From an uncultured Planctomycetia bacterium (GTDB lineage: Bacteria; Omnitrophota; Gorgyraeia; Tantalellales; Tantalellaceae): a stretch of 64,000 nt of DNA. The DNA is taken from positions 10,593 to 74,592 of the forward strand of contig CAZGOG010000004.1 of NCBI GenBank assembly GCA_964527555.1. The letters run 5' to 3'. Below, piece after piece: positions 8,997-25,138 of the stretch. A program made the position numbers and the translations under genes. Under the pieces are notes generated by a model. The model searched no databases and was not told where the DNA came from. It saw only the letters and a list, made by a program, of their open reading frames with translations. How positions within the stretch are numbered: the first letter of the stretch is position 1; every line of letters starts with the position of its first letter.

Positions 8997-9953
8997 GTGC
9001 AAAGAAACGCCCCTGTTCTAATCATGATACTTATAGCGGTCTCTGTTATCACGGCGCTGTCGTTTTTCTCGATAAACAAGGCTTACCATGGACTCGAGGA
9101 GGCGGGCTACCTTGATAAATCTCAGCTGATTTATGACAGGGCCCAGGAATTTTTGGAGAGAAACGAGCGCGATAAAGCCATCAACGCTTTTGTGATGAAC
9201 ACTAAAGCGTATCCCACCTCCAGCTATACTAAGGAATCACTCAAGGCTTTGATATACATTTATCTTGACAGAGGCGATTATGAAAAGGCGGGGTATTATT
9301 ACAGGTCGCTGGTGAATAATTTCCCCGAGACAGAGGATGCCGATAAGATACTCGCCAGGATCGAAGAGCTTAACATGGAGATGCTTAAGTCCCGGTCTCC
9401 GGATGAAGAGAGCGTTGACTATAAAGTCCGGGCGGGGGACACCCTTTACGGTATCGCGAAGAAGTTTAATACGACGGTGGAACTCATCAAGAAAACCAAC
9501 AACCTTTCAAGCGATACTATACGTATGGGCCAGAACCTTAAGGTAAATATCTCGACGTTCTCCATCTTTATCGATAAATCCAGGAACACTTTAGTGCTCA
9601 AAAAGAATGAAGTGCCTTTTAAGACGTACAGGGTTGCGACGGGTGAGAATAATTCCACCCCGGTGGGCAGCTTCACCATCGTAGAGAAAATGATTAAGCC
9701 TCCATGGACGAAACCCGGTGTCGGTATAGTCATGCCCGACAGTCCCGAATATGAACTGGGTGAGAGGTGGATGGCTATTTCTGTTTCAGGATACGGTATT
9801 CACGGCACCAATGACGCTTCTTCCATAGGGAAACAATCGACTGCCGGATGCGTGCGTATGCACAACGGTGATGTTATCGAACTGTATGACATTGTTCCGG
9901 TAGGAACCCGGGTTGAGATAGTAAACGCCGAAGATGCTGTTATAAGACGGTAA
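8997..9953 (+). CDS. LysM-domain L,D-transpeptidase (YkuD family) with N-terminal TPR-like region
   Basis: GTG start with an aggagagg SD. The LysM domain reads [29 protein letters not shown]. The catalytic YkuD motif is HGT....AGCVRM. Confidence 0.75.
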
Positions 9954-9976
9954 ACGATCAGCGGAAACGAATAAAC

Positions 9977-10933
9977 ATGGCTATTACCCTTGATTTCGAA
10001 AAACCTATAATAGAGCTCGAGACAAAGATCGAAGAGCTCAAGAAGTTTACCAGGGATGAACATATTGATCTTTCCGATGAGATAATCAGGCTCAATGAGA
10101 GGCTGGAGAAGCTCAGGAAAGAGGTATTTCATAACCTTACTTCCTGGCAGAAAGTGCAGCTTTCACGGCATCCGGACAGGCCCTATACGCTTAATTATAT
10201 CGACATGATCACAGAAGATTTCATGGAGATCCATGGTGACCGCCATTTTTCTGACGATAAAGCCCTTATAGGGGGGCTGGCCAGGATCGGCGGACAGAAA
10301 CTCATGATCCTGGGACATCAAAAAGGCCGTGAGACCAAAGAGAACCTTGAAAGGAATTTCGGTTGCGCTCACCCCGAGGGATACCGCAAAGCCATGCGTC
10401 TTATGAGAATGGCTGAAAAATATAATATACCGGTAGTTGCTTTTATAGATACCCCCGGCGCTTATCCCGGTATAGGCGCTGAGGAACGCGGGCAAGCCGA
10501 GGCGATAGCTTACAACCTTAGGGGAATGGCGGGGCTTAAAGTGCCCATACTCGTATTTGTCATCGGTGAGGGAGGTTCCGGCGGAGCCCTCGGAATAGGC
10601 ATAGGGGATAGGATATTTGTCTTGGAGAACGCCTATTATTCCGTGATCTCACCGGAAGGCTGCGCCGCGATACTGTGGAGGGAGCCTTCAAAAGCCTCTG
10701 CTGCGGCTAAGTGCCTCAGGCTGACAGCGCCGGAACTGCTCGAGCTGGGTATAATCGACGGGATAATACCTGAGCCTCTCGGGGGTGCTCACAGAAATCC
10801 CGTTCTTGCGGCAAACGAGATAAAAAAGGTCATAGACAAAAACCTTAAAGAGCTCTCAAAGCTTTCGGAAGATGAACTTCTTGATGCCAGGTACAGAAAA
10901 TACAGGAGTATCGGCGTATATGACGAGGGGTGA
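9977..10933 (+). CDS. accA: acetyl-CoA carboxylase carboxyltransferase alpha subunit AccA
   Basis: [15 protein letters not shown]... with the crotonase-fold motif GGSGGALG. The protein is 318 aa. Confidence 0.9.
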
Positions 10934-10943
10934 TTTTAAAGAC

Positions 10944-11351
10944 ATGAAAACCACTATTGATAACGACAGTCATCTGCTCAAAGAAGTGAGTAAAAAACTC
11001 ATAAGCACGCTTCGGGCGCATAAAGTCAGGGAAGATATTATCTTTGATATTCATGTAGGTTTTGAGGAAGCCCTTCGCAATGCCATGATACATGGGAACA
11101 AGCAGGATCCCGGCAAAAAAGTGGTTGTTGAGACGGATATTATAGAAAACGCCGTGGTGATATCGGTAGAAGACGAGGGAGAAGGGTTCGATCCGAAAAA
11201 ACTGCCGGATCCCACGCTTGATGAGAACATTCTTAAGGAAGGCGGCCGCGGGGTCTATCTTATAAACCATCTTATGGACGAGGTCAAATATGAAAATGGC
11301 GGAAGAAGAGTTGTTATGATAAAATATTTTAATAAAAATGCCAACAAATGA
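10944..11351 (+). CDS. RsbW/SpoIIAB-like anti-sigma factor serine kinase (GHKL HATPase_c)
   Basis: N-box EALRNAMIHG, G1 DEGEGFD and G2 GGRGVYLI are all present. The start was chosen at the internal ATG at 10944, after the accA stop. Track ORF 10872 and the alternative 10920 start both overlap accA. Confidence 0.7.
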   Translation: MKTTIDNDSHLLKEVSKKLISTLRAHKVREDIIFDIHVGFEEALRNAMIHGNKQDPGKKVVVETDIIENAVVISVEDEGEGFDPKKLPDPTLDENILKEGGRGVYLINHLMDEVKYENGGRRVVMIKYFNKNANK

Positions 11352-11363
11352 CGGAGGCAGGAG

Positions 11364-11696
11364 ATGCAGATCAATCTGGAAAAGAAAGGCGAGGTATCGG
11401 TTTTTAAGGTCACCGGTGACATCGATATCGAAAGCGCACCTCAGGTAAAAAAGACCTTTGATAAAGCGATTACTTCAGCCAGTAAACAGGTCGTGATAAA
11501 CCTGCAGGAAGTCAGTTACGTGGACAGCTCCGGGCTTGCCACGCTGGTTGAGATCCTGAAAAACATGCGCAGCCACGGAGGAAAGCTGAAACTGGCCAAT
11601 CTTTCCGCCAAGGTAAAGGGGCTTTTTGAGATAACCAAACTGGATAAACTGTTTGATATCGCTCAAAGCGAAGAAGAAGCTATTAATTCTTTCTGA
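11364..11696 (+). CDS. STAS-domain anti-sigma-factor antagonist (SpoIIAA/RsbV-like, phosphorylatable Ser)
   Basis: 110 aa. It carries the ...YVDSSGLATLVEIL motif, in which the DSSG serine matches the phospho-site of SpoIIAA/RsbV. Confidence 0.75.
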   Translation: MQINLEKKGEVSVFKVTGDIDIESAPQVKKTFDKAITSASKQVVINLQEVSYVDSSGLATLVEILKNMRSHGGKLKLANLSAKVKGLFEITKLDKLFDIAQSEEEAINSF

Positions 11697-11737
11697 TTTA
11701 GGGTAAACTAATAGCAATATTATTAGAAAAGAAAACT

Positions 11738-12535
11738 ATGAAGAATCCGATAAGTGTCGTAGGAAGTATAGCGATCAGGCTCGTTAAGAGCATCACGGAC
11801 ATACTGGCGCTTTTGTGTAATACGATCATATGGATAATAATGGGGCCCCTTAAGGGCAAGGCGGCCAGCCGGCAGAGTATTTTCCAGCAGATGGTCTTTG
11901 CGGGAGTGCAGTCCGTTGTCATTGTCTTTTTCGTGTCGTTTTTTACCGGTATAGTCATAGCCATGCAGAGCGCCTATCAGCTTAAACAGCTGGGCGCGAT
12001 AATTTACGTGGCTCCCATGGTCAGCATAAGTCTGGCCAGGGAACTGGGGCCGGTCTTCACCGCACTGGTTGTAACCGGCAGAGTCGGCTCGGCGATAACG
12101 GCGGAGCTGGGGACCATGAAAGTCTCCGAGCAGATCGAGGCCCTTGAGACTTTGGCGCTCGATCCCGTAAGGTTCCTTGTGGTGCCGCGCTTTTTAGCGC
12201 TTCTGGTGATGCTTCCGTGTCTTACGATCATGAGCGATATCGTCGGCATACTGGGCGGCCTTCTTGTCGGCGTGTTCAACCTTCAGATCAACCCCTACAG
12301 GTACATAACTTTTTCTTTTGATTTCATGACATGGAAGGACGTATGGACGGGTCTGGTGAAAAGCGGAGTATTTGCGGTTATAATTTCCATGGTGGCCTGC
12401 CACGTGGGGCTTGAGACGCGCGGCGGCGCCGAGGGCGTAGGAAGATCCACGACGCTGAGCGTCGTTATCAGTTTTATAATGATCATTGTTTTTGATTGTC
12501 TCTTGACGGGACTGTTTTATTTTTCAAACGTATAA
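11738..12535 (+). CDS. mlaE: MlaE-family ABC transporter permease
   Basis: 265 aa and 5-6 TM segments, with an N-terminus typical of the MlaE/Ttg2B family. Confidence 0.8.
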   Translation: MKNPISVVGSIAIRLVKSITDILALLCNTIIWIIMGPLKGKAASRQSIFQQMVFAGVQSVVIVFFVSFFTGIVIAMQSAYQLKQLGAIIYVAPMVSISLARELGPVFTALVVTGRVGSAITAELGTMKVSEQIEALETLALDPVRFLVVPRFLALLVMLPCLTIMSDIVGILGGLLVGVFNLQINPYRYITFSFDFMTWKDVWTGLVKSGVFAVIISMVACHVGLETRGGAEGVGRSTTLSVVISFIMIIVFDCLLTGLFYFSNV

Positions 12536-12550
12536 ATATTTCAGGAAAAT

Positions 12551-13351
12551 ATGGAAGAAAGAGAAGTTGTAGTAGAAGTCAAGGATCTGGTAAAAAAGTT
12601 CGGCGAAAGGACCGTTTTAAACGGGGTCGACCTCAAAGTATACAGGGGAGAGACCTTTGTTATCATGGGCGGCTCCGGCTGCGGTAAAAGCACGCTGCTG
12701 CGTCATATGATAGGAAGCCTCAAGGCCACCAGCGGAAGGGTTATCTTGCTTGGCGAGGATATCACGGATCTATACGACTCCCAGCTCGATGATGTCCGCA
12801 AGAAAATAGGAATGTCGTTTCAGTCTTCCGCGCTTTTCGATTCGATGACGGTAGCTGAAAACGTAAGCCTGGCGCTTAGGGAACACACGAAACTGGAAAG
12901 GAGCGTCATCGATATCGTGGTAAAGATGAAGCTCGAACTCGTGGGCCTGAGGGGCTTTGAGGACCTTATGCCCAGCGAGCTTTCCGGCGGTATGAGAAAA
13001 AGAGTGGGCCTGGCCCGGGCCATAGCGATGGATCCCGAGATAATTTTTTATGACGAGCCTACCGCGGGACTCGATCCTATCGTGGCGGCTGTGATAGACA
13101 AGCTTATAATAGATCTTTCCAAGAAAATGGCCATAACAAGCGTCGTGGTCACGCATGACATGAAGAGCGTAATGGCTATAGCGGACAGGATAGCCATGCT
13201 TTATGAAGGCAAAGTCCTCGAGACGGGGACGCCTTATGAGATACAGAATTCCGCAAACGAGATGGTCCAGCAGTTCATAAACGGCAACCATGACGGGCCG
13301 ATACGGTTTTTCCAGCAGAAAGATGATTATCTGGAACACTTAACCCAGTAA
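12551..13351 (+). CDS. mlaF: MlaF-family ABC transporter ATP-binding protein
   Basis: Walker A GGSGCGKST, signature LSGGMRKRV and Walker B IIFYDEPT. Confidence 0.85.
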   Translation: MEEREVVVEVKDLVKKFGERTVLNGVDLKVYRGETFVIMGGSGCGKSTLLRHMIGSLKATSGRVILLGEDITDLYDSQLDDVRKKIGMSFQSSALFDSMTVAENVSLALREHTKLERSVIDIVVKMKLELVGLRGFEDLMPSELSGGMRKRVGLARAIAMDPEIIFYDEPTAGLDPIVAAVIDKLIIDLSKKMAITSVVVTHDMKSVMAIADRIAMLYEGKVLETGTPYEIQNSANEMVQQFINGNHDGPIRFFQQKDDYLEHLTQ

Positions 13352-13375
13352 AACGGTATAAAAAGGAGAGAAATC

Positions 13376-13972
13376 ATGAGATTGTCCAACGAAATAAAAG
13401 CAGGTTTTGTTGTTGTGGTAGCGATCGCTATCGGGGTGTTCTTTTTTGCCAAGACCGCCACTTTCATGGCCCAGACGTATGACCTGAAGACGTTTTTCGG
13501 GTATGCGGGCAATCTCAAACCCGATGCGATAGTAAAACTTGCCGGGGTCGAAGTCGGGAGGGTGAAAACCATAGACTTTGTATATGATCCCGAGACAAGG
13601 GTGGAATGCCTGCTTGAATTAGACGTGAGCGCCAGGGTCCGGAAAGACTCCCTGGCTTATGTGGCTACCTCCGGGTTTGTGGGGGATGCGTACGTCGGCC
13701 TTACGTCGGGAAGTGCCGATGAGTTTATGGTCCCCGGAAGCACCGTGGAGAGCGAAGATCCTATCGAGATGCGCCTCTTAATGAAAAAAGCCGAGGATAT
13801 TGCAAACAACCTTGACAGCATACTCGTCCAGATAAAGGGGGTTGTCACGGATAACCGGCAGAACATGGATAATATCGTGGTTAACCTCGAAAAGACTACG
13901 GAGAACTTCAAAGAGTTCAGCGAAGACGTCAAAAAGAATCCATGGAAGCTCCTTTTTAAACCCAAAGACTAG
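13376..13972 (+). CDS. mlaD: MlaD-like MCE-domain periplasmic substrate-binding protein
   Basis: An N-terminal TM anchor is followed by an MCE domain (LAGVEVGRVKTIDF). Confidence 0.75.
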   Translation: MRLSNEIKAGFVVVVAIAIGVFFFAKTATFMAQTYDLKTFFGYAGNLKPDAIVKLAGVEVGRVKTIDFVYDPETRVECLLELDVSARVRKDSLAYVATSGFVGDAYVGLTSGSADEFMVPGSTVESEDPIEMRLLMKKAEDIANNLDSILVQIKGVVTDNRQNMDNIVVNLEKTTENFKEFSEDVKKNPWKLLFKPKD

Positions 13973-13989
13973 TATACGAAAGGACTGAT

Positions 13990-14781
13990 ATGAAAAAACT
14001 TTTGCTGTTATTAGTATGCCTCGCTTTGTCTATAGGCTTGACCAGCGCTTACGCGCTGGATGAAAAAGTTGTCGTCGTATCGCATGACGGGGACGTAAAA
14101 GTCATTCCTGCCGGCCAGGCACAGGCGATTGCGTGCCAGAACGGAATGCTGCTGAAAGAGGGCAGCCGCGTGATCACCGGCAAGGCTTCCTATGTCACGA
14201 TAGCTTTTGATAAAGCCGGGCGCAATCTTGTGAAAATAAAAGAAAACACCGAAGTAGTCATAAAACTTGACGGCTCCGACAAGATAGAGCTTGTTGACGG
14301 CGTGGTCTTTGCTCTTTTGCAAAAACTTGACCGGGGCGAGACGTTCCGCGTGAGAACGCCCTGCGCGGTCTGCGGCGCAAGAGGAACGGCCTGGATGACG
14401 GAGACGAACGGCTTAGTCACATATGTAGGCGTTTTCGGAAGCAACGTCTTTGCAAGCGGTATCAATAAAGACGGCTCCGTTATGGAGAAGAAATACTGGG
14501 TGAAAAACGGATACCAGAGGATGATAGAGAAGTTCAAAGATCCGGGTGATGAAAAGAAGGTGCCTGAAGACACGCTTAAAAAATGGAAGAAAGAATTCGG
14601 CCTTGGGGAAAAAGGCAGGAAAGACAAGGAAAAAGGTTTCTGGGGCGGCACAAACTACCGCGAGAAGCAGATAAACACGCTCGAGGACCGTAAAAGCAGG
14701 GAAGAAGTAGAAGAAGAGCAAGAGGAGAAAGATAAACATAACCGTAAATACACCGGTTACGGATTTACTACGGGAACGTAA
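13990..14781 (+). CDS. secreted FecR-domain protein, paralog 1
   Basis: Signal peptide MKKLLLLLVCLALSIGLTSAYA. The FecR-like pattern is LLKEGSRVITGKASYVTIAFD...VVIKL...GETFRVRTPCAVCGARGTAWMTET, with a charged C-terminal tail. Confidence 0.5.
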   Translation: MKKLLLLLVCLALSIGLTSAYALDEKVVVVSHDGDVKVIPAGQAQAIACQNGMLLKEGSRVITGKASYVTIAFDKAGRNLVKIKENTEVVIKLDGSDKIELVDGVVFALLQKLDRGETFRVRTPCAVCGARGTAWMTETNGLVTYVGVFGSNVFASGINKDGSVMEKKYWVKNGYQRMIEKFKDPGDEKKVPEDTLKKWKKEFGLGEKGRKDKEKGFWGGTNYREKQINTLEDRKSREEVEEEQEEKDKHNRKYTGYGFTTGT

Positions 14782-14790
14782 CAGCGCGTA

Positions 14791-15825
14791 ATGAGATTTG
14801 ATATAAAGAAAATTCTGATCTTACTAGTGTATATCGCCTCGGTTATCTGGGGAGGATGCTCTTCTCATGCCGCGGAAGAGGCGGTCGTAGTTATCTCTTA
14901 CGCGGGGGATGTAAAAGTAATCCCTCCTTCCAGCACGGAAAAGGTGGCGTGTAAACCGGGTATGATCCTCAAGGAAGGCACCCGTGTTGTTACGGGAAAA
15001 GAATCATACTTAAAGATAGCTTTCGACAGGTCCGAACGAAACGTTGTAAAAATAGAAGAAAACAGCGAAGTAGTCATAAAGCTTGACGGTGACGACAAGA
15101 TAGAGCTTGTAGACGGAAAGGTTTTTGCTTCACTACAGGACATTAAAAAAGGCGAGACGTTTCGCATAAGGACTCCTTGCGCCACTTGCGGCGCAAGGGG
15201 CACAGGATGGCTTACCGAAACGGACGGATCGACAATGAATGTGTCTGTTTACGAAGGTACCGTCTTTGTGCGCGGCATGAATAAAGACGGTACTGTCATG
15301 GAGAAAGAGTATTTAGTCAAAGAAGGATTTCAGAGGAAAGTTAATATATTCAAACGCCCGGAAAAGCCGATAAAGATCCCGGAGCGGAAGTTCACGCAGA
15401 TAAAAGACGGGGCTAGAGGCATAGTGGGGGTCAGACATCCGGCAAAGGAAGGGGCGAATCCCCTCGTAGATGTCCCCAGGGAACTGATTACAGAGGTCAT
15501 CAAGGATACTGAGGGGCTTATTGGACTTCGCAGGGAGCCGGAAGAGCCGGCACTTAAAGAGATTGAGAAGCCGGAAGTTATAGAAGTCGACAGGACCGAG
15601 TTAATTGAGAGGATCGAAAGTTCAGGTGCCGTGACGGATAAACTGGAAAGAATAGAGACTTTTGAAAAACCGGAATTTTTTGAAAGGCCTGAAGTCTTCG
15701 GAAGGGACGAAAGGCCCGAAAAACCCGAAAGACCCGAAATGCCGCCGAGAGACGAAAGATTCAACAAAATAGAGAGGCCCCGGGTACTGGACTCTAATTT
15801 AAGGGATAAAATAAATACAAGGTAA
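14791..15825 (+). CDS. secreted FecR-domain protein, paralog 2 with Glu/Arg/Pro-rich repetitive C-terminal tail
   Basis: The core is about 60% identical to paralog 1 (ISYAGDVKVIPP...GETFRIRTPCATCGARGTGWLTETDG). The tail has ERPE/KPE repeats. Confidence 0.5.
   Translation: MRFDIKKILILLVYIASVIWGGCSSHAAEEAVVVISYAGDVKVIPPSSTEKVACKPGMILKEGTRVVTGKESYLKIAFDRSERNVVKIEENSEVVIKLDGDDKIELVDGKVFASLQDIKKGETFRIRTPCATCGARGTGWLTETDGSTMNVSVYEGTVFVRGMNKDGTVMEKEYLVKEGFQRKVNIFKRPEKPIKIPERKFTQIKDGARGIVGVRHPAKEGANPLVDVPRELITEVIKDTEGLIGLRREPEEPALKEIEKPEVIEVDRTELIERIESSGAVTDKLERIETFEKPEFFERPEVFGRDERPEKPERPEMPPRDERFNKIERPRVLDSNLRDKINTR
15709..15744 (+). repeat. four imperfect 9-bp tandem repeats (GAAAGGCCC/GAAAAACCC/GAAAGACCC/GAAATGCCG) inside the paralog-2 tail
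   Basis: Read directly from the sequence. They encode RPE-KPE-RPE-MPP. Confidence 0.6.
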
Positions 15826-15850
15826 CGAGATAAAAAGAAGGGGGAGACAG

Positions 15851-16912
15851 GTGACTATAAAATATAATCGCATATTGAAGCTTCCCGTTATAATAACTCT
15901 GATTCTGGCAGTTTTTGTATTTTTCCCGGTACCAGAAGCTGTAGCTATTGACGAACAGATAACCGACAGGTACCCGTCGGCTACCGCGTCTCCCAAACAG
16001 AAGATAAAAGAAGCGGGAGAGGAATATGTATACGAACCTGAAACACGCACGAGTTTCACCGGTTATGTGGATATGCAGGGCGGGTACGACAATAACGTGG
16101 ATCTTGACTCCCAGAGGAATAAGGACGGGTTTATCCAGACCACGGCTAACGTGGATATTGCGTATGAACAGACGGAAAACTTAAAACTAAGGACCGGTCT
16201 CGATCTTTTTAATTCCACCTATTTTAATTACAACAGAAACAATCTCTTAGACACTTCCCCGTACATCGGGTTTGATTACAAGTTTGCTCCGAATATAATC
16301 TCCAAGAACCGGATCATATTCGATTATTACTGGTTCCCGACGGAGGAGGAAGACACTTTTTATGGGCCCGCACTTTCGACGTCTCTGAGGCATTATTTCG
16401 CGAATAATTTTTTCCAGGAAGCCGGCTTTGAATACCTGTGGAGATGGTATACGAAGCAGAAGGTGGTCCTTTCCAACCTTTCAACGGGGTCCGATAAACG
16501 TTACGACAGCCGTTACAGGGTGCAGTATACCGTAGGATACTACTCGAACCGTTTTATCGCAAAACTCAGGAACGAGTTCAGCCAGAACAACTCCAACTAT
16601 GAATACGAAAACTATTATGATTACTGGCGCTGGAGGGTTAAGCCGTCGGTAATGTTCTTTTTTACGGATAAGTTTTATACGGACGTTAGTTTGATTTACA
16701 GGTATACCGATTACAGCGATCGCCTGGCGACGGATAATGCCAGCGAGAAAGTTCACAATAACACTTATATAATTAACGCCTCGTTCTATTACGATATTAC
16801 CAAGGATATTACCTGGGGCATTACGTATTCCTACAGCGAGAACCTTTCTAACGACCCGTATGAGAAATATTCCGGCAGCGTCGTGACCAGCGGTATTTAT
16901 TACAGCTTTTAG
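15851..16912 (+). CDS. putative outer-membrane beta-barrel protein
   Basis: Signal-anchor-like N-terminus, Tyr/Asn/Asp-rich alternating segments, and a C-terminal ...GIYYSF ending in Phe. Confidence 0.45.
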   Translation: MTIKYNRILKLPVIITLILAVFVFFPVPEAVAIDEQITDRYPSATASPKQKIKEAGEEYVYEPETRTSFTGYVDMQGGYDNNVDLDSQRNKDGFIQTTANVDIAYEQTENLKLRTGLDLFNSTYFNYNRNNLLDTSPYIGFDYKFAPNIISKNRIIFDYYWFPTEEEDTFYGPALSTSLRHYFANNFFQEAGFEYLWRWYTKQKVVLSNLSTGSDKRYDSRYRVQYTVGYYSNRFIAKLRNEFSQNNSNYEYENYYDYWRWRVKPSVMFFFTDKFYTDVSLIYRYTDYSDRLATDNASEKVHNNTYIINASFYYDITKDITWGITYSYSENLSNDPYEKYSGSVVTSGIYYSF

Positions 16913-17030
16913 CTTTATATAAACTTTGCAGTAGGATGAGCGCCTTGCCGGTATGTATGGGTTTTCAGTTATCCCTTTCACCGGGACCGACCGGCAAGCC
17001 GGCTAAATGAGAGATCCTGACTAAGAGCCG

Positions 17031-18944
17031 ATGAATAAATTCGATAAAAATAGAATAACTTATTTTGCTTTAGGGGCTTTTTTAATAGCACTCTTTCTTT
17101 TCTTTTCCTATTCCAGGGTATTCGACGAGTTCGAGTACAGTACCCTTGACCTCAGGTACAGGCTCCGGCCTCCCCAGCCCGTCAGTAAAGACATAATAAT
17201 CGTCGAGGTAGGAGACGATTCCATAGAAAAAATAGGCCAGTGGCCTTTTCCCCGTAATTACCACGCGCTTTTGACCAAAGCACTCAGTGTTTCCGGCGCG
17301 CGCACGATCGTTTTTGATATCTTTTTCAGCGAAGAAAAAGAGAAAGACGCGGATTTTGCGGAAGCCATCAAAGCATCCGGGAGGGTATACCTGCCTTATG
17401 TTTTTGAGCCGGACAGAAACCCATCCGATAGGACCTGCCTCCATGCCATTGGCTATGCCGCACCACTTATAGAAGTGCTGAAGAAGGAAGCCAAAGGCAC
17501 GGGGTTTATAAACGTTGAGCCGGACATAGACGGGAAGATACGCCGTATACCTCCTTTTATCGAATATAAGGGTGAGTTTTACCCGCATTTAACGGTACTG
17601 GCCGCACTTAACAATCTTGGGTATTCGTTCAGTGACGTGCAGATAATTCCCGGCAAGAAAATAATAGTAAGCGGAAGTATGGTGATCCCTTTAGATGAAG
17701 ACTCTTCTCTTTTAGTCGATTATCCGGCAGTCTGGGGCAAAGCTTTCCGTCATTATTCTTATGTGGATGTACTCCAGTCGTATCTTGCGGACATAACCGG
17801 GCAGGAACCGGTGTTGGACCTGAGTGTATTCAAGGACGCAGTGTGTTTTATCGGTATGACGGCGACCGCCTCTCCCGATGCGCACCCCTCGCCGCTGGAG
17901 CCGCTCTATGCGGGTATAGGGGTCCATACCAGCGTTTACAACAGTATAATCGAAAATATCTTCCTGCGCAGACTTAACAGATGGGGCAATCTCCTTATCC
18001 TTGTCTTTATGTGGTTTTTGACGGCCCACGTGACGGTGAGAAGCCGTAAGAGGTTTGCGCTCTTTTCCATCCTGCTTATTATGGCGGTATATATTATCCT
18101 GGCGGTACTTCTTTTCTGGCCGCTGGGCCTGTGGATAGACGTTTTCTATCCGCTTATCACGATGGCCGCGGTTTACGTTATTTTCACGTTTAAAAAATAT
18201 ATAGGTGAGATCCAGAAAAGGGAGATCATTGAAAAAGAGCTTGATATCGCCAAAGACATTCAGCAGAGCTTTCTGCCGTCAGAAGTGCCGACTGTCGGAG
18301 GCATGGATGTGAAAGTCGAGATGCTGACGGCGCGCCAGGTCGGCGGTGATCTTTATGACATAATCCAGCTGGATGATAAAAAACTGGGAGTCATGATAGG
18401 GGATGTTTCCGGAAAAGGCGTACCCGCGGCTCTTTATATGGCAAGGGTCGTAAGCGTCTTTAAAACTTTTGTAAGGGAAGGGGCGCCTTCTGTGGTCCTT
18501 AAAAAGGTCAATGAAAGGCTTGTAAGTGAAGCCGGCAGTAATCTTTTCGTGACTGTTACATACATGATCTTCGATTCTGAAAAGAATACCACCACCTTTT
18601 CCATCGGCGGACACCTGCCGACACTTCTTATTGAACCTGACGGGGGAGTGGAACTCTTGGACGTATCTGAAGGTATGCCGCTGGGTATGATAGAAGGCGA
18701 TTTCGGTTCCGGCGAAAGAGAGTATAGACCGGGGAGCATCTTCGTCCTTTATACCGATGGTGTCACCGAGGCGATGAATATAAAAAACGAGATGTTCGGC
18801 GAGGAACGCCTGGTCGAGCTGGCCAGGAGTTTGAAAGGTTTCTCATCTGAAGACGTAGTCAAGGTTCTGCATAAAGCGGTTTTGGACTTTGCGGGAAAAG
18901 CAAAACAGCACGATGATATAACTGTAATGGCCATAAAGATTTAG
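17031..18944 (+). CDS. CHASE2 sensor domain / TM / PP2C-type (SpoIIE/RsbU-like) serine phosphatase
   Basis: An N-terminal TM and an extracytoplasmic CHASE2-like region of about 300 aa are followed by TM helices. The C-terminal SpoIIE-like domain has MIGDVSGKGVPAALYM and ...YTDGVTEA. Confidence 0.8.
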   Translation: MNKFDKNRITYFALGAFLIALFLFFSYSRVFDEFEYSTLDLRYRLRPPQPVSKDIIIVEVGDDSIEKIGQWPFPRNYHALLTKALSVSGARTIVFDIFFSEEKEKDADFAEAIKASGRVYLPYVFEPDRNPSDRTCLHAIGYAAPLIEVLKKEAKGTGFINVEPDIDGKIRRIPPFIEYKGEFYPHLTVLAALNNLGYSFSDVQIIPGKKIIVSGSMVIPLDEDSSLLVDYPAVWGKAFRHYSYVDVLQSYLADITGQEPVLDLSVFKDAVCFIGMTATASPDAHPSPLEPLYAGIGVHTSVYNSIIENIFLRRLNRWGNLLILVFMWFLTAHVTVRSRKRFALFSILLIMAVYIILAVLLFWPLGLWIDVFYPLITMAAVYVIFTFKKYIGEIQKREIIEKELDIAKDIQQSFLPSEVPTVGGMDVKVEMLTARQVGGDLYDIIQLDDKKLGVMIGDVSGKGVPAALYMARVVSVFKTFVREGAPSVVLKKVNERLVSEAGSNLFVTVTYMIFDSEKNTTTFSIGGHLPTLLIEPDGGVELLDVSEGMPLGMIEGDFGSGEREYRPGSIFVLYTDGVTEAMNIKNEMFGEERLVELARSLKGFSSEDVVKVLHKAVLDFAGKAKQHDDITVMAIKI

Positions 18945-18957
18945 AAAGAGGGAGGAG

Positions 18958-20589
18958 ATGCAGCTAAAACTTGAAAGACTTAAGAATTTTACCCCCAGAA
19001 AGGGGCCGCTTCTTTTAATCATCATGGACGGTGTGGGGATGGGTAAGGAGGATGAGACCAACGGCGTGTACGTTGCCAAGACGCCGTGCCTGGATAAACT
19101 CTTTAAGAGTAAACTTTTCACTACACTCCAGGCTCACGGTACCGCGGTCGGCCTTCCCTCGGATGATGATATGGGGAACAGTGAAGTCGGACACAACGCT
19201 TTAGGTGCCGGAAGAGTGTTCGCGCAAGGAGCGAAACGGGTAAATGTGGCGATAAGAGACGGATCTATCTTTAAAAGCGATGTCTGGAAGAAACTCGTTT
19301 CAAGAGTCAAGGAAAAGGGAAGCACCTTTCACTTGATAGGACTTTTATCGGACGGCAACGTCCACTCTAATATCAAGCAGCTCTTCGACATGGTGAGGCG
19401 CCTTGCGGAAGAAGGAGTGAAGCGCGTGCGAATTCATGCGCTTTTAGACGGACGCGACGTGCCTGAGAAGTCCGCCCTCACTTATATAGACATGACGGAA
19501 GAAGTGCTTGATAAAGTGCGCAAAGATAAAGGTTATGATTACAGGATCGCTTCCGGCGGGGGACGCATGGTCACGACCATGGACAGGTATGAGGCTGACT
19601 GGTCAGTTGTAAAGCGGGGCTGGGATGCCCATGTCCTCGGCAAGGCGAGACAGTTTCCTTCCGCTGGCGCAGCCGTTCAGACATATTATGACGAGGATCC
19701 CGGTATGACGGATCAGTATATGGACTCTTTCGTTGTAGCCGAGGGTGGCGAACCCGTAGGCCGCATATTAGACGGCGATTCTGTTGTCTTTTTTAATTTT
19801 AGAGGCGACCGGGCTATTGAGATATCCCGGGCTTTTGAGGAGAAAGATTTTAAATTCTTTGACCGCGAAAGGTATCCCGATATTCTTTATGCGGGGATGC
19901 TGCAATATGACGAGGATACGCACATACCTAAGTATTATCTTGTTGAGCCGCCTGAGATTGATAAAACAGTGAGTGAATACTTATGCACCGCCGGAGTAAG
20001 GATGTTCGCTATCAGCGAGACGCAGAAGTTCGGGCATGTGACGTATTTCTGGAATGGGAACAAGTCCGGGTACGTTTGCAAGGAGCTTGAAGAATATTAC
20101 GAAATACCGTCGGATAAAGTGCAGTTCGACAAGGCCCCGAAGATGAAAGCGCCTGAGATAACGGAGAAGACCACGGGACTCTTAAAAAGCGGGAAGTTCC
20201 GGTTCGGCAGGCTGAATTTCGCAAACGGGGATATGGTGGGGCATACTGCTGTAGTGCCGGCTATTATAAAGGCTATGGAGACGGTGGACTCCTGCGTCGA
20301 GAAACTTCTTGATGTAGTAAAAGCGCTTGATGGGATAGCAATAGTTACCGCTGATCACGGCAATTCAGAGGAGATGTTCACCTATAAAGAAGGCAAGAAA
20401 GTCGTTCCCAAGACGGCTCACACATTGAATCCGGTACCTTTTATCATATATGACCCCGGGTATGCGGGAGAATACAGTATGGCCGATATTCCCGAAAAAG
20501 GGCTTTCGAATGTGGCTGGGACTATCCTGAATCTTTTGGGGTACGAGAACGTCAAGGACTATGATCCACCCCTTATAACGTTTAATTAA
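18958..20589 (+). CDS. gpmI: 2,3-bisphosphoglycerate-independent phosphoglycerate mutase
   Basis: Carries MGNSEVGHNALGAGRV, a C-terminal ADHGN and is 543 aa. Confidence 0.9.
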   Translation: MQLKLERLKNFTPRKGPLLLIIMDGVGMGKEDETNGVYVAKTPCLDKLFKSKLFTTLQAHGTAVGLPSDDDMGNSEVGHNALGAGRVFAQGAKRVNVAIRDGSIFKSDVWKKLVSRVKEKGSTFHLIGLLSDGNVHSNIKQLFDMVRRLAEEGVKRVRIHALLDGRDVPEKSALTYIDMTEEVLDKVRKDKGYDYRIASGGGRMVTTMDRYEADWSVVKRGWDAHVLGKARQFPSAGAAVQTYYDEDPGMTDQYMDSFVVAEGGEPVGRILDGDSVVFFNFRGDRAIEISRAFEEKDFKFFDRERYPDILYAGMLQYDEDTHIPKYYLVEPPEIDKTVSEYLCTAGVRMFAISETQKFGHVTYFWNGNKSGYVCKELEEYYEIPSDKVQFDKAPKMKAPEITEKTTGLLKSGKFRFGRLNFANGDMVGHTAVVPAIIKAMETVDSCVEKLLDVVKALDGIAIVTADHGNSEEMFTYKEGKKVVPKTAHTLNPVPFIIYDPGYAGEYSMADIPEKGLSNVAGTILNLLGYENVKDYDPPLITFN

Positions 20590-20590
20590 C

Positions 20591-20619
20591 TTGACTATAA
20601 AAGAGACAAGTACTAAAAT
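20591..20619 (+). promoter_or_regulatory. sigma70-like promoter for tRNA-Leu (TTGACT-17-TAAAAT)
   Basis: ttgact at 20591-20596, a 17-nt spacer, taaaat at 20614-20619. The tRNA begins at 20645. Confidence 0.5.
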
Positions 20620-20644
20620 TATTTTTTCAAAGTCTCGAAACCTT

Positions 20645-20732
20645 GCCGGAGTGGTGGAATTGGCAGACGCGCTGGACTCAAAATCCAGTGGGGTATCCCC
20701 CCATGTGGGTTCGACTCCCACCTCCGGCACCA
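20645..20732 (+). tRNA. tRNA-Leu (anticodon CAA), long variable arm, encoded CCA
   Basis: Acceptor GCCGGAG pairs with CTCCGGC. The anticodon stem CTGGA/TCCAG closes a CTCAAAA loop, and the T-arm is GGTTCGACTCC. 88 nt. Confidence 0.9.
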
Positions 20733-20750
20733 TGGTTCGACGCGCAAAAA

Positions 20751-20776
20751 AGCCTGTTCAAAAACAGGCTTTTTTG
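20751..20776 (+). terminator. rho-independent terminator after tRNA-Leu
   Basis: A 7-bp stem (AGCCTGT ... ACAGGCT) with a 6-nt loop, followed by TTTTTT. Confidence 0.7.
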
Positions 20777-20901
20777 CTTGCTCACCATTTGTGCTCAGAG
20801 GAGTCGAACCATGATCCCGAGCAAGCTAAATATTCTGACGATAGGAAGAATATTTAGCGCGCCGAGGGACAATCTACACAGCTCTCGAACAGCGAAGCAG
20901 A

Positions 20902-20917
20902 CCCACCTCCGGCACCA
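20902..20917 (+). repeat. 16-bp perfect direct repeat of the tRNA-Leu 3-prime end (CCCACCTCCGGCACCA)
   Basis: It is identical to 20717-20732. An inverted copy of the T-arm core (GGAGTCGAACC) lies between them at 20791-20801. Confidence 0.7.
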
Positions 20918-21134
20918 CTATTAAAATTCGGACCTTTGGCCGGCGGTAATAGGTCAACCGCCGCCTTCGGCCCCTTCGGGCTGCTGGTAAACGCAGCCGA
21001 ATTTTTTTGAGAGGGAACCGATGGTTCCCTCTCAACGCCCGCCTTCGGCGGGCTGCTCACCCTCCTTTATAGGTAAGACGGGTGTAAACCCATGGGGCTC
21101 CACTTTTTAACAAACACAAAAAACCCGATTTAGG

Positions 21135-21163
21135 TTGACACATATAAAAAAAAGAGGTAACTT
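21135..21163 (+). promoter_or_regulatory. candidate promoter (TTGACA-17-TAACTT) in the 600-bp intergenic region
   Basis: ttgaca at 21135-21140, a 17-nt spacer, taactt at 21158-21163. Confidence 0.35.
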
Positions 21164-21244
21164 AAATTCAAGAAGTGTTATGACTCCCTAGAAATGGACA
21201 TTTTAAAGGGATGACCCATGAAAAGCAGATATTTCAGATAATAA

Positions 21245-21285
21245 GGGCAATACGCAACTCTGGATAGTGTATTGTCCTTTTTTTT
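21245..21285 (+). terminator. intrinsic terminator / attenuator hairpin 50 nt upstream of the subtilase gene
   Basis: GGGCAATAC plus a 15-nt loop plus GTATTGTCC (9 bp with one G-U pair), followed by TTTTTTTT. Confidence 0.55.
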
Positions 21286-21334
21286 ATGAAGAGTTTATAC
21301 GAGGCACAAAATCTATTGAAATAAGGAGAGAAAA

Positions 21335-24300
21335 ATGAGGATTCAAAAAATATACAAGCTATTTTTAGGGATTTCTATAATAAGTCTGTTCGTATTATCT
21401 TTAATGATGCCTGAAGCTGCGGCAGTTGAGACCTACGACGTGATAAGATTTATTGCTCCGGTAGATGGGGATACATGGACTTATACGGGCGACGCGGAAA
21501 TGACTGTGACCGTGGATGGCACAAAGAATATATCGGGAGTGCCGGTGACATGTTACAGTTATAACGGCGGCCAGGCGGGAGGAGAAGAGGACGGCTCGGA
21601 GGAATATCAGATTATTGACCTAGAGGGTATAAACAGTTATGGTGTCGGGGCCCGGGATGATAACGGAGACTGGCTGGAGATGATTTTTGACGCGCCGCTT
21701 TCAATAGCGCCGAGATATGTAGAGTTAGGAGAGACTTATTACGGCAGCACGACTTATACGATATTTACGTATAAAATCCAGATAACTTCCAGTTTTACGG
21801 TTGATGAAGTGGAGGATGTCACTCTTCCCTCCGGAGTTGCCTACAAAGACGCATTAAAAGTTACAATGACACTTCATATGGAGAACTCTCTTCTTGGAAT
21901 AAATGAGACTTCAGGATACGAAAGCTGGAATGTAAGCGGTCTGGGGCCGGTTAAAGTCGTAAATACTATACTTCCGGCGGAACCCGAAGAGTCATACCTT
22001 GAAAGTGCTACAGTGCATCACGATTCCGGATATAAGAAGGCGGAGGTGTTTTCCGCACCTGACGGGGAAGGGTATTTTTATTATCAGTATCGTGATGAGG
22101 ATTATAATGGCCAGGGTTTCGGCAGAGTAAGCAGGAAACAGAGACCGGATACGAGCTATACAACATTCGAGGGCTATTATGAAAGAGCCGGTTCTAACCT
22201 TGACGGGTACCTTGAGAAAAACGGCGGGAAGATAGCTGATGAAGACAGCATCCTTATGCAGGGTTCTCATGCGGTTAAGGTAACCCCTAAACTTAACTCT
22301 TCAGACGTAAGATATGAAATACCGAATTATGCCGATTATGCGGGAGAGACTGTGACTTTTTCATGCTGGGTGCGTTCCTCGGGAGAAAGAGCGGCATGTA
22401 TTGAAATAAGGGACGGTTCGACTATCACCAGATCCGAGAGGCATTCCGGTAGCGGCGGATGGGAGCTTCTTACAATCACGCATACGGTAGCTAATGACCC
22501 GGCATATTTAAGGCTTAGATTTATTCCGGATAAAAGAGACGGGGATGATATCGCTTATTTTGACAATGCGATGTTCGGCAAGCCTTCTCTTCCGGGTAAG
22601 AACCTTCTTTTTAACAACGATTTTGAGTATTGGCATACGGCAGATGCGGACCAGGCGAAATATGTCAAAGAATATAATGAAAACGGTCTTATCGTAAAGT
22701 CCAGTGAGTATTATTCAGACGGTACGCTGTTTCGCCAGACGCTTTTTGATGGTTATTATGACGGTTCCCCTTCGGGGCTCGACGGCTGGGAAGTTGCCAA
22801 CGGGGGCAGCTTGGATGATGAAACTGCCACCGTGAGATCCGAGTCTCATTCCGCAGAAGTGGCAGCGGACCTGGTATCTTCAGACTTAAGATACGAAGTT
22901 TTGCACTACACGGATTATGCAGGCGCAGAAATCACTTTTTCGTGCTGGGTGTATTCCGAGGCGGCAAATTCAGCTCTTATCGAAGTAAGAGACGGCTCAA
23001 GCGTTACAAGATCCGCGTATCATTCGGGTTCCGGCGCCTGGGAGCTTCTCACAGTCACTCATACCGTCTCAGGATCTCCCGATTATCTAAGGTTTAGACT
23101 CATCCCTGATAAAAACGACGGGAATGATCCCGCCTGTTTTGATGATGCGGCATTCGAAAGAAGCGCCGATCCTGGAAACGACCTCTTTTTAAACAGCGGT
23201 TTTGAACACTGGTATGCTCCGGGTGATGATCAAGCCAGATACGTTACCGAGCGTGGGGCGGGCGGCGCTTTTATCAGTAGATGCGAATATTATTCCGACG
23301 GCACGCTTCATAAGCAAACATGCGACGAGGGTGAAGCTGTTTACTCCTGGTATGCGCCCAGCGGCAGGATGCACACTAAAGAGCTGCTTCTTGAGAACGG
23401 TGACCCCGCGGGGACGATATACGAGTATAGCGATGAAGACTGGAACTGCAGTAATTACGGCAGATTGATCAAAAAGACTGGGCCCAGCGGGACATATACG
23501 GTATTTGAAAATTATTTTGATTGCACCCGTTTTGGACTTGATGGATGGGAGATTGGAAACTTTGCTTCTTTCGCGGATGAGACTTCTACGGTGAGAGGAG
23601 GTTCGCATTCTACTAAAGTCAATGCTACGCTCACTTGTTCAGATATGAGATATGAAGGGGCAAACTATATGGATTATGCAGGTGAGGAAATCACTTTTTC
23701 GTGCTGGGTGTATTCCGAGGCGGCAAATTCAGCTCTTATCGAAGTAAGAGACGGCTCAAGCGTTACAAGATCCGCGTATCATTCGGGTTCCGGCGCCTGG
23801 GAGCTTCTCACAGTCACTCATACCGTCTCAGGATCTCCCGATTATCTAAGGTTTAGACTCATCCCTGATAAAAACGATGGGAATGATTCCGCCTATTTTG
23901 ATGATGCGACTTTTGAGCGAAGCGCCGATCCCGGGAATAACCTCCTTTTCAACAGCGGCTTTGAGCATTGGCGCGCTCCGGCGACCGACCAGGCGAGATA
24001 CGTAAAAGAGTATGCAGCGGACGATACTTTGCTTGAAACGTACGAATACTATTCTGACGGTACGCTGTATGAGTATTTGAATTTTGGGCCCAGTTCGCTG
24101 GTTTTAGAGGAGGGATTACAGTTTAATGAGGTAGCTGATCCCCCCTTACCGGAAAGCGTGGAGTATTTCTATGGGAGGATAGACGAGCTTAAAGCTGTTT
24201 CGGATGGACGCGGTGTCACAATTGCAATACTTGATACGGGGTTAGATACAGGCCGCCTTGATATTGATGTCATCGGCGGATTTGATTTTGCAGGGGAAAA

Positions 24301-25033
24301 CTGCTTTGACGGATTTTCCGATAGCGATTATACCGACTTTATAGGGCACGGCACTTTTACAGCCAGTGTCATTAAAGGTGAAGATGCGAGGGGAGTTGCC
24401 CCGGAGGCCGATATTCTTTCGGTTAAGGTGTTTGATAACCAGGGTGGGACGACTTCAGGCATTGTCGCCCGGGCGATCCGTTACGCGGCGGATATGGGCG
24501 CAAAAATCATAGCGATGCCGTTCAGTCTACTTCCGATAAACGGCCAGGTTGAAAGTGCTATTGACTATGCTACCGGCAAAGGCGCTATATTAATAGCTTC
24601 AGCAGGCAACGAGGGAAGTGAAGTAGAGGATACAAGCCTTGCGGCAAATGGTAAAGTTATCACGGTAGGCGCAGCTGATAATAACGGAAAAATGTCGGCG
24701 TGGAGCAATTACGGAAGTGAACTGGACCTTCTGGCGCCCTGGGATGTTGTGACCCTGGAAGAGGGAGGGGCGGGGACTTCTTTCTCGGCGGCCTTTGTAG
24801 CCGGTCTTACGGCGCTCATGCTTTCTGAGAATCCGGATATGACTGAGGAAGACGTGATTGAAGAACTCAAGGCTCTTACATCTGGCTTTGATATGGGAGG
24901 CGCAGAAGAAATCAAAGGCGCCGCTTATAATGACGTCATCTCCATGCAGGAAGCAGAAAGCAAAAACCGCACTGACTTTACCGGGTATTCGCCGGAGATG
25001 GATATTTATGTCGCGCCCGGCGCCGAGCATTAA
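21335..25033 (+). CDS. secreted modular subtilisin-like serine protease (peptidase S8) with three ~250-aa N-terminal repeat modules (YD-repeat-like motif + CBM4/9-like beta-sandwich)
   Basis: Signal peptide with AAAVE. Each repeat carries ...SHS..V......SDLRYE..NY.DYAGE.ITFSCWV.S.....ALIEVRDGSSVTRSAYHSGSGAWELLTVTHTV...PDYLRFRLIPDKNDG. Each also carries EYYSDGTL and YEYSDEDWN..NYGRL motifs. The C-terminal S8 triad is D(TIAILDTG), H(HGTFTAS), S(GTSFSAAFVAG). Confidence 0.85.
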   Translation: MRIQKIYKLFLGISIISLFVLSLMMPEAAAVETYDVIRFIAPVDGDTWTYTGDAEMTVTVDGTKNISGVPVTCYSYNGGQAGGEEDGSEEYQIIDLEGINSYGVGARDDNGDWLEMIFDAPLSIAPRYVELGETYYGSTTYTIFTYKIQITSSFTVDEVEDVTLPSGVAYKDALKVTMTLHMENSLLGINETSGYESWNVSGLGPVKVVNTILPAEPEESYLESATVHHDSGYKKAEVFSAPDGEGYFYYQYRDEDYNGQGFGRVSRKQRPDTSYTTFEGYYERAGSNLDGYLEKNGGKIADEDSILMQGSHAVKVTPKLNSSDVRYEIPNYADYAGETVTFSCWVRSSGERAACIEIRDGSTITRSERHSGSGGWELLTITHTVANDPAYLRLRFIPDKRDGDDIAYFDNAMFGKPSLPGKNLLFNNDFEYWHTADADQAKYVKEYNENGLIVKSSEYYSDGTLFRQTLFDGYYDGSPSGLDGWEVANGGSLDDETATVRSESHSAEVAADLVSSDLRYEVLHYTDYAGAEITFSCWVYSEAANSALIEVRDGSSVTRSAYHSGSGAWELLTVTHTVSGSPDYLRFRLIPDKNDGNDPACFDDAAFERSADPGNDLFLNSGFEHWYAPGDDQARYVTERGAGGAFISRCEYYSDGTLHKQTCDEGEAVYSWYAPSGRMHTKELLLENGDPAGTIYEYSDEDWNCSNYGRLIKKTGPSGTYTVFENYFDCTRFGLDGWEIGNFASFADETSTVRGGSHSTKVNATLTCSDMRYEGANYMDYAGEEITFSCWVYSEAANSALIEVRDGSSVTRSAYHSGSGAWELLTVTHTVSGSPDYLRFRLIPDKNDGNDSAYFDDATFERSADPGNNLLFNSGFEHWRAPATDQARYVKEYAADDTLLETYEYYSDGTLYEYLNFGPSSLVLEEGLQFNEVADPPLPESVEYFYGRIDELKAVSDGRGVTIAILDTGLDTGRLDIDVIGGFDFAGENCFDGFSDSDYTDFIGHGTFTASVIKGEDARGVAPEADILSVKVFDNQGGTTSGIVARAIRYAADMGAKIIAMPFSLLPINGQVESAIDYATGKGAILIASAGNEGSEVEDTSLAANGKVITVGAADNNGKMSAWSNYGSELDLLAPWDVVTLEEGGAGTSFSAAFVAGLTALMLSENPDMTEEDVIEELKALTSGFDMGGAEEIKGAAYNDVISMQEAESKNRTDFTGYSPEMDIYVAPGAEH
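22928..23118 (+). repeat. 191-bp perfect intragenic direct repeat, copy A (copy B at 23687-23877, period 759 bp)
   Basis: The DNA is identical between the second and third protease repeat modules. The flanks are about 75-85% identical. Confidence 0.8.
23687..23877 (+). repeat. 191-bp perfect intragenic direct repeat, copy B
   Basis: Identical to 22928-23118. Confidence 0.8.
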
Positions 25034-25087
25034 CCCTATCGGTTATTATCTATTCTGAAAAATTCCTGGGGATAAGACCAAAAACTA

Positions 25088-25116
25088 TTGACATCGTTTT
25101 ATGGCGATGTTATATT
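25088..25116 (+). promoter_or_regulatory. near-consensus sigma70 promoter for tRNA-Ala (TTGACA-17-TATATT)
   Basis: ttgaca at 25088-25093, a 17-nt spacer, tatatt at 25111-25116. The tRNA starts at 25139. Confidence 0.6.
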
Positions 25117-25138
25117 TGTTTTTCAGCAGACACCAAGT

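Follow-up and report, generated by a model that had tools for sequence, protein, structure and literature searches.

In the Mla lipid transporter of Escherichia coli, the STAS-domain protein MlaB binds the helical subdomain of the ATPase MlaF, and the C-terminal extension of the neighbouring MlaF subunit places Tyr261, Leu265 and Leu266 into the groove between MlaF and MlaB (PMC7367683). The phosphomimetic MlaB substitution T52E weakens binding to MlaF and T52A abolishes ATPase activity, and two papers on the E. coli system have proposed that MlaB is phosphoregulated at Thr52, with no kinase or phosphatase known; in E. coli, phosphorylation of MlaB is hypothesised only. Here we analyzed a 64,000-nucleotide (nt) stretch of contig CAZGOG010000004.1 from an uncultured member of the Omnitrophota (the window), in which the genes of an MlaEFD transporter are bracketed by those of an RsbW-type serine kinase and a single-domain STAS protein on one side and that of a CHASE2-sensor PP2C phosphatase on the other. 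Operons of this kind supply a kinase, a phosphatase and a STAS protein with a canonical phospho-acceptor, and on balance we think it somewhat probable that the cluster encodes an MlaFED-type (MCE) ABC lipid transporter that is controlled by a partner switch acting on its cytoplasmic STAS subunit.

The closest described switches are RsbU-RsbV-RsbW and SpoIIE-SpoIIAA-SpoIIAB, which consist of the same three protein families and likewise receive their input through the N-terminal sensor of the PP2C phosphatase. Here, by contrast, no sigma factor was found in either the operon or the window, and the partner conserved across genomes is an ABC transporter. Some partner switches act on something other than a sigma factor, among them BtrUVW of Bordetella, HsbR-HsbA and SiaABC of Pseudomonas aeruginosa and SypE-SypA of Vibrio fischeri; they resemble the present cluster in that a STAS or STAS-like protein is toggled by a kinase and a PP2C phosphatase. 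These systems differ from ours in controlling biofilm formation, type III secretion or cyclic di-GMP enzymes, and none of them is known to be linked to an MCE or Mla transporter.

A phylogenomic survey of Mla systems counted STAS genes linked by synteny as "MlaB" and described them as few in number and largely confined to Proteobacteria; no mention of kinases or phosphatases was found in its phylogenomic section or by term search. The term "MlaB" does not occur in a 2021 review of STAS-domain-only proteins. An earlier note on this DNA, made from the sequence, had claimed that the coupling of a partner switch to an Mla transporter is not a described system, and our literature searches found no description of an Mla system equipped with a kinase or a phosphatase. 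The components are all of known kinds, and it is their combination that is new.

The Gene Cluster and Its Proteins

Nine consecutive genes occupy positions 10944-18944, all on the + strand (Table 1). From the kinase gene to that of the outer-membrane protein (OMP) they are separated by 12, 41, 15, 24, 17, 9 and 25 nt, and a further 118 nt precede the phosphatase gene. The gene order, strand, coordinates and gaps given in the earlier note were borne out by the open reading frame (ORF) calls and by Pfam, with matches to HATPase_c_2, STAS, MlaE, ABC_tran, MlaD, FecR (twice), CHASE2 and SpoIIE in the profile searches that the note had proposed. Gene content, domains and the catalytic and phospho-site motifs described below are direct observations.

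Table 1. Genes of the cluster and its immediate neighbors, in window coordinates.
Feature	Coordinates	Strand	Evidence and remarks
RsbW/SpoIIAB-type GHKL serine kinase, 135 aa	10944..11351	+	Pfam HATPase_c_2, E 9e-29
Single-domain STAS protein, 110 aa	11364..11696	+	Pfam STAS, E 4e-25
MlaE permease	11738..12535	+	Pfam MlaE (PF02405), E 2e-79; TIGR00056, 246 bits, over cutoff
MlaF ABC ATPase with C-terminal extension ending DDYLEHLTQ	12551..13351	+	Pfam ABC_tran, E 1e-33
Short MlaD, 198 aa: N-terminal transmembrane helix, MCE domain, C-terminal helix	13376..13972	+	Pfam MlaD (PF02470), E 1e-14
Secreted FecR-domain protein 1 (FecR1), 263 aa	13990..14781	+	Pfam FecR (PF04773), E 4e-8; signal peptide
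Secreted FecR-domain protein 2 (FecR2), 344 aa, possible lipoprotein, E/K/P-rich tail	14791..15825	+	Pfam FecR, E 3e-12
Outer-membrane 14-strand beta-barrel (OMP), 353 aa	15851..16912	+	No Pfam match; signal peptide, C-terminal YYSF
CHASE2-sensor PP2C phosphatase, 637 aa	17031..18944	+	Pfam CHASE2, E 8e-51; SpoIIE/PP2C, E 1e-50
accA, acetyl-CoA carboxylase alpha subunit, fatty-acid synthesis	9977-10933		10 nt before kinase gene
gpmI	18958-20589		Starts 13 nt past phosphatase gene
tRNA gene	20645-20729		After gpmI

The kinase scores 62 bits against the NCBIfam RsbW model, which has a cutoff of 145 bits, and also lies under the SpoIIAB equivalog cutoff. Its N box (EALRNAMIHGN), G1 (DEGEGF) and G2 (GGRGV) motifs are kept in the alignment of its orthologues, a group of at least 120 clusters at 90% identity. 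The start at 10944 agrees with orthologues of 132-136 aa that begin just past accA, and the longer ORFs that could be read from 10872 or 10920 would run into accA.

The STAS protein has the motif YVDSSG, in which Ser55, the predicted phosphorylation site, aligns with Ser58 of SpoIIAA and with Thr52 of MlaB (these reference sequences, and the sigma factor queries used below, were entered by hand). At 91.5 bits it exceeds the 53.45-bit cutoff of the NCBIfam family ant_ant_sig (TIGR00377), it reaches only 36 bits against the 90-bit cutoff of mlaB_1 (NF033618), and its best matches in the PDB are TM1442, RsbV and SpoIIAA, with MlaB not among them. For these reasons we refer to it as a putative MlaB-like protein in the sense of its proposed function, and not as a member of the MlaB family.

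The phosphatase is predicted to consist of a transmembrane helix (residues 9-27), a periplasmic CHASE2 domain, three more transmembrane helices (318-336, 344-362 and 369-387) and a cytoplasmic SpoIIE-type PP2C domain, in which the motifs GGD, GDVSGKG, TDG and DDIT are all present. Judged by sequence, all three partner-switch families are represented with intact catalytic and phospho-acceptor motifs.

For the transporter, the best NCBIfam family of the ATPase is MlaF (256 bits, under the 441-bit equivalog cutoff) and its best PDB matches are the MlaF proteins of Acinetobacter baumannii, P. aeruginosa and E. coli, while MlaD, with its transmembrane helix at residues 7-25, scores under the MlaD equivalog cutoff. 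No Pfam match to MlaC (PF05494) or MlaA (PF04333) was found among the scanned window ORFs, and the rest of the genome could encode them. The cluster resembles the MlaFEDB systems of E. coli and A. baumannii in its homologous MlaE, MlaF and MlaD, in the shortness of MlaD, in having a single-domain STAS protein in the operon, in an MlaF extension with a conserved Tyr and in a STAS Ser at the position of MlaB Thr52. It differs from them in that the STAS protein is of the RsbV/SpoIIAA type and not an MlaB equivalog, in that its gene precedes mlaE near the start of the operon rather than coming last, and in having a dedicated kinase and PP2C phosphatase and no MlaC or MlaA match in the window.

Conservation of the Cluster Within and Outside Omnitrophota

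We scanned an MlaE alignment against one genome per species and obtained 80 loci, which were annotated with phmmer and Pfam and are referred to here by numbers with the prefix L. The order accA-kinase-STAS-MlaE-MlaF-MlaD-FecR(1-2)-OMP-CHASE2-PP2C recurs in Omnitrophota contigs whose OMP is as little as 34% identical and, when between zero and two FecR genes and an optional OMP gene are allowed for, extends across L001-L025 and L090-L092. The arrangement is conserved and is not due to chance; the neighborhood comparison that the earlier note had called for found the cluster to be syntenic in more than 25 Omnitrophota loci. In seven loci (L010, L011, L012, L014, L015, L017 and L025) the CHASE2-PP2C gene directly follows mlaD, without FecR or OMP genes, and in other STAS-linked Omnitrophota loci FecR and OMP genes are inserted ahead of it. 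L055 has the order CHASE2-PP2C, unknown ORF, FecR. The only exception that we found to the occurrence of FecR and OMP genes with CHASE2 is L021 (6374-9689), in which FecR and OMP genes follow mlaD, no phosphatase gene is present and a ComM/Mg-chelatase-like gene comes next. Omnitrophota also have a second set of MlaE-MlaF-MlaD paralogs without STAS or kinase genes, in about 30 loci (the STAS-less ones among L026-L054 and others; for example L027:9980-12249). In an MlaE neighbour-joining tree calculated without support values, this set and the STAS-linked one are sister clades, and the STAS-less set is a natural within-phylum control.

A kinase-STAS pair directly upstream of MlaE was also found in metagenome-assembled genomes (MAGs) labelled Nitrospinota, Acidobacteriota, Limnocylindrales and Actinomycetes, and the guanine-plus-cytosine (GC) content of these cross-phylum loci ranges from 36 to 65%. 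Outside Omnitrophota the PP2C phosphatase has a GAF or a HAMP domain in place of CHASE2 and its gene lies upstream, giving the orders GAF-PP2C/kinase/STAS/MlaEFD in L044 and L047 (Nitrospinota) and HAMP-PP2C/kinase/STAS/MlaEFD in L053 and L059 (Acidobacteriota). L060 (Limnocylindrales) and L072 (Acidobacteriota) combine kinase, STAS and MlaEFD with an ABC_trans_aux lipoprotein, and in L079 (Acidobacteriota) the genes are ordered likewise, the place of the lipoprotein being taken by an unscanned ORF of 221 aa. The verrucomicrobial loci L076, L078 and L081 have only STAS and MlaE(F) genes, with STAS upstream of MlaE. In every STAS-linked locus mlaE is directly preceded by STAS, including those loci that lack the kinase or the PP2C phosphatase. 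Since these three verrucomicrobial loci have STAS alone upstream of MlaE, as MlaB occurs with Mla in E. coli, the STAS protein is the constant partner of Mla, and the kinase and the phosphatase are add-ons. Variation of the phosphatase in sensor and position, with STAS staying beside MlaE, is what a functional module would be expected to show. The motif DSSG is kept in 31 of the 33 Mla-linked STAS proteins, the remaining two having DTAG (L024) or no longer having the motif (L081).

We considered the possibility that the loci outside Omnitrophota are mis-binned Omnitrophota contigs and rejected it on the basis of their GC content of 36-65%, their MlaD lengths of 322-374 aa, their different PP2C architectures and their separate deep branches in the MlaE tree.

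Two further observations were made in these loci. In the Omnitrophota-like locus L023 (8039-9256) a protein with a sub-threshold match (49 bits against a 50-bit cutoff) to DUF748, an AsmA-like lipid-transfer family, is encoded directly upstream of the kinase-STAS-MlaEFD genes and overlaps the start of the kinase gene. In a Verrucomicrobiota MAG an MlaE-MlaF pair without STAS is followed, about 1 kb downstream, by the gene for a CHASE2-adenylate/guanylate cyclase (L074:12565-14715), which could be a coincidence or another link between CHASE2 and Mla.

A C-Terminal MlaF Motif Accompanies the STAS Gene

The tail of the window MlaF (…DGPIRFFQQKDDYLEHLTQ) aligns without gaps to residues 194-262 of E. 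coli MlaF, with Tyr260 falling on Tyr261, the first of the residues that reach into the groove between MlaF and MlaB. The corresponding handshake motif, Y[LIVMG]x2-3[LIVM], occurs in 25 of 31 STAS-linked MlaF proteins and in none of 44 STAS-less ones (Fisher p = 1.4e-14, not corrected for relatedness), and MlaF of the STAS-less Omnitrophota paralog set ends near GPIT, without this tail. The motif follows the STAS gene rather than the kinase gene, as L078 and L085 have STAS and the motif with no adjacent kinase. This co-occurrence is a direct observation, and it supports reading the STAS protein as a counterpart of MlaB.

The Output of the Partner Switch

The earlier note had remarked on the lack of a sigma factor, and within the 64 kb of the window we likewise detected no sigma-70-family ORF, either by phmmer with RpoD, RpoE and SigB queries or by Pfam scans of the window ORFs. 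Among the STAS-linked loci only L053 has such an ORF, of the extracytoplasmic function (ECF) type, on the opposite strand and about 3 kb away. One explanation of the cluster would be a conventional partner switch in which the kinase is an anti-sigma factor, or inhibits another regulator, with its target encoded outside the window and the Mla genes as co-transcribed cargo or regulon, comparable to rsbV-rsbW-sigB in Bacillus. The ordinary RsbV- and RsbW-like sequences of the STAS protein and the kinase, the scope of 64 kb of genome and the ECF sigma factor of L053 would fit such an arrangement. However, none of the approximately 33 STAS-linked loci, which come from several phyla, has an adjacent group-3 sigma factor gene or any other evident target, STAS keeps its place directly before mlaE in loci without a kinase or phosphatase, the handshake tail of MlaF co-varies with STAS, and a linkage kept across genomes of such different GC content is hard to square with passive co-transcription. 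We consider a conventional switch unlikely.

Alternatively, the kinase itself may be the effector, binding and inhibiting MlaF (or MlaE) in the way that SpoIIAB acts on sigma F, with the unphosphorylated STAS protein relieving the inhibition by sequestering the kinase. This would follow literal partner-switch logic, and the kinase gene stands directly beside the transporter genes in at least 28 loci. Against it, loci without an adjacent kinase keep STAS beside mlaE, L078 and L085 keep the MlaF tail motif, and MlaB of E. coli, a STAS protein, binds MlaF directly with no kinase involved. We regard this explanation as highly improbable.

The reading that we prefer, in which the STAS protein is a subunit of the transporter, must itself be weighed against several points. 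By its sequence the STAS protein is a canonical anti-sigma antagonist, and nothing in the sequence alone separates it from an RsbV that regulates a sigma factor. The window covers 64 kb of genome, and a cognate sigma factor or another target could be encoded elsewhere. No PP2C gene lies within 10 kb in several of the kinase-STAS-Mla loci (L023, L024, L043, L060, L072 and L079), and the taxon labels outside Omnitrophota are those of MAG record titles, so that binning errors are possible. Six STAS-linked MlaF proteins lack the exact tail motif, and the tail statistic carries no phylogenetic correction. In addition, MlaF of Veillonella parvula is reported to have a short C-terminal extension without any MlaB, and for this reason the tail alone is no proof of a STAS partner. 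What the earlier note had proposed is supported in part: the trio of switch proteins brackets MlaEFD without a sigma factor, the linkage of kinase and STAS to MlaE is now seen across phyla, and the association of STAS with the MlaF tail favours an MlaB-like role of the STAS protein; the part that we do not retain concerns the FecR and OMP genes and is taken up below.

Proposed Mechanism

In the model that we propose, the STAS protein in its unphosphorylated form (Ser55-OH) would bind MlaF at its helical subdomain, like MlaB of E. coli, and would act with the handshake tail of MlaF to stabilise an active MlaF dimer on MlaE in an MlaF2E2D6 complex. Phosphorylation of Ser55 by the RsbW-type kinase would cause the STAS protein to leave MlaF, and the transporter would be switched off or its ATPase activity lowered. 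The membrane-bound CHASE2-PP2C phosphatase would remove the phosphate upon a signal at its periplasmic CHASE2 domain, and in this genome that signal would probably arrive via the beta-barrel OMP and the two secreted FecR proteins, by analogy with cell-surface signalling through FecA-FecR and PupB-PupR. We infer the binding of STAS to MlaF and the sign of the regulation, as well as what the signal is, what is transported and in which direction.

More broadly, the loci may represent a phylogenetically widespread and previously unrecognised class of MCE/Mla transporters gated by serine phosphorylation of an MlaB-like STAS protein, each with its own RsbW-type kinase and sensor PP2C phosphatase (CHASE2, GAF or HAMP); in Omnitrophota the switch would be wired to the cell surface through OMP, FecR and CHASE2. 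We put this generalization forward tentatively. If it is true, an ABC transporter would join the short list of non-sigma outputs of partner switches, and CHASE2 would be linked to envelope lipid homeostasis. The cluster offers a natural system in which phosphoregulation of Mla could be tested with four or five purified proteins; as the organisms are uncultured, such work would require heterologous systems.

The FecR Proteins and the Outer-Membrane Barrel

The two FecR proteins are paralogous (244 bits), both exceed the Pfam cutoff and both have only a signal peptide ahead of the FecR domain; neither has an N-terminal cytoplasmic anti-sigma domain with a transmembrane helix, and no partner ECF sigma factor was found in the window. 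FecR2 also has weak LipL45/Lsa33-like NCBIfam matches. In an AlphaFold2 model of the FecR1 core (residues 27-190), the pLDDT exceeds 90 in each 10-residue block from 31 to 200. The only significant PDB matches of this model are FecR-type periplasmic domains (E 1e-6 to 1e-5), BDI_1681 (4m0n) and the CCSSD of PupR (6ovk_R), the latter a cell-surface signalling domain whose crystal structure includes its partner from the outer membrane. Scores for LolA and other lipid carriers were at noise level. The OMP model, also from AlphaFold2, is all-beta with 14 strands (pLDDT 80, pTM 0.76), and Foldseek found a generic likeness to porins, CymA, OmpG and FadL, with a TM-score of about 0.5; no plug or STN domain match was obtained. 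The OMP family has 24 homologues among 5.8 billion proteins, and those with a name are all from Candidatus Omnitrophota.

Secreted FecR-domain proteins have been described beside CHASE2 receptors of two kinds, namely histidine kinases in Burkholderia and P. aeruginosa, and adenylate cyclases in Campylobacterota. As homologue searches with the OMP, FecR and kinase sequences gave Omnitrophota-like sequences only, the pairing of FecR with CHASE2 outside this phylum rests on the literature. The cluster is like the BiofilmReg operon of Burkholderia, PA4035-4036 and the adenylate cyclase clusters of Campylobacterota in having a secreted FecR-domain protein encoded beside a CHASE2 receptor, and differs from them in that the output is a PP2C phosphatase and not a histidine kinase or a cyclase. 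It is like FecA-FecR and PupB-PupR in that the FecR fold matches the PupR signalling domain and an OMP is encoded alongside; unlike in those systems, the FecR proteins are soluble or lipid-anchored and are not anti-sigma factors, and the OMP is a small 14-strand barrel and not a TonB-dependent transducer. Given that the FecR and OMP genes are optional and adjoin a CHASE2 gene, that the FecR fold is of the signalling type and that a pairing of FecR with CHASE2 is known, we read the OMP and FecR proteins as probably the input arm of the CHASE2 sensor. If this is correct, the status of the outer membrane would directly control lipid traffic between the membranes in Omnitrophota.

The earlier note had suggested that the same proteins may be the periplasmic and outer-membrane parts of a lipid-transport machine, in which the FecR proteins and the OMP would replace MlaC and MlaA. 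The lack of MlaC and MlaA matches among the scanned window ORFs and the position of the FecR and OMP genes directly after mlaD are in keeping with that idea, as is L021, which keeps FecR and OMP with no CHASE2-PP2C following. So is the length of MlaD, at 198 aa, as short MlaD proteins are reported to occur otherwise almost only in Proteobacteria, which have MlaC and MlaA. Yet the seven loci in which CHASE2-PP2C directly follows mlaD are otherwise intact without FecR or OMP and have MlaD proteins of 197-250 aa (197-212 in six of them), and FecR and OMP genes occur in none of the STAS-Mla loci outside Omnitrophota. The structural matches of FecR1 are to signalling domains and not to carriers of the LolA type, FecR proteins are known beside CHASE2 receptors with other outputs, and the OMP is a generic barrel, unlike MlaA, which is an alpha-helical lipoprotein. 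We therefore do not favour a role of these proteins as stand-ins for MlaC and MlaA, for which the chances appear poor, and retain the input arm as the explanation of their presence.

Genomic Surroundings and Other Features of the Window

In most Omnitrophota loci accA lies directly against the kinase gene or runs into it, a neighborhood that is not kept outside the phylum. This lipid-synthesis neighbor may be co-transcribed with the cluster. A promoter and terminator scan of 9800-21400 gave counts that were not above those of shuffled sequences, with no convincing intrinsic terminator inside the cluster or before the end of gpmI. The 118-nt gap ahead of the phosphatase gene (16913-17030), which in relatives measures only 3-33 nt, contains an 8-nt inverted repeat (CTTGCCGG…CCGGCAAG). 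We considered a regulatory RNA in this gap and set the idea aside, as its folding is no better than that of shuffled sequence (z = -0.23) and it has no Rfam match.

Elsewhere in the window, a small ORF with two transmembrane helices (2473-2691, + strand) lies between mgtE and an ORF for a 191-aa coiled-coil lipoprotein-like protein. Its positional counterparts in L090-L092 have a precomputed Pfam match to PF26391 "MamI", and the window ORF itself has no Pfam match. A protein-sorting locus of the PEP-CTERM/exosortase type occupies 21335-27082, where the gene for a protein of 1232 aa, its C-terminal domain an S8 subtilase, is followed by exosortase (EpsH) and EpsI genes on the minus strand.

The intervals 28135-29964 and 36536-63207 form a large, sulfur-themed glycan locus. 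It includes PAPS-reductase-family/CysD-like and CysN-like genes, two sulfotransferases (51016-51903 and 54343-55107), two sulfatases, a Wzx-like flippase and a Wzy_C protein, along with many glycosyltransferases and methyltransferases and a radical SAM enzyme, a gene content that suggests a sulfated polysaccharide. The GC content of the window is 0.39-0.42 from 44 kb on, compared with 0.46-0.50 in the first 26 kb. Nearly all long ORFs of the window are on the + strand and the GC skew is positive in every 2-kb bin, which is consistent with a long co-oriented stretch of the leading strand.

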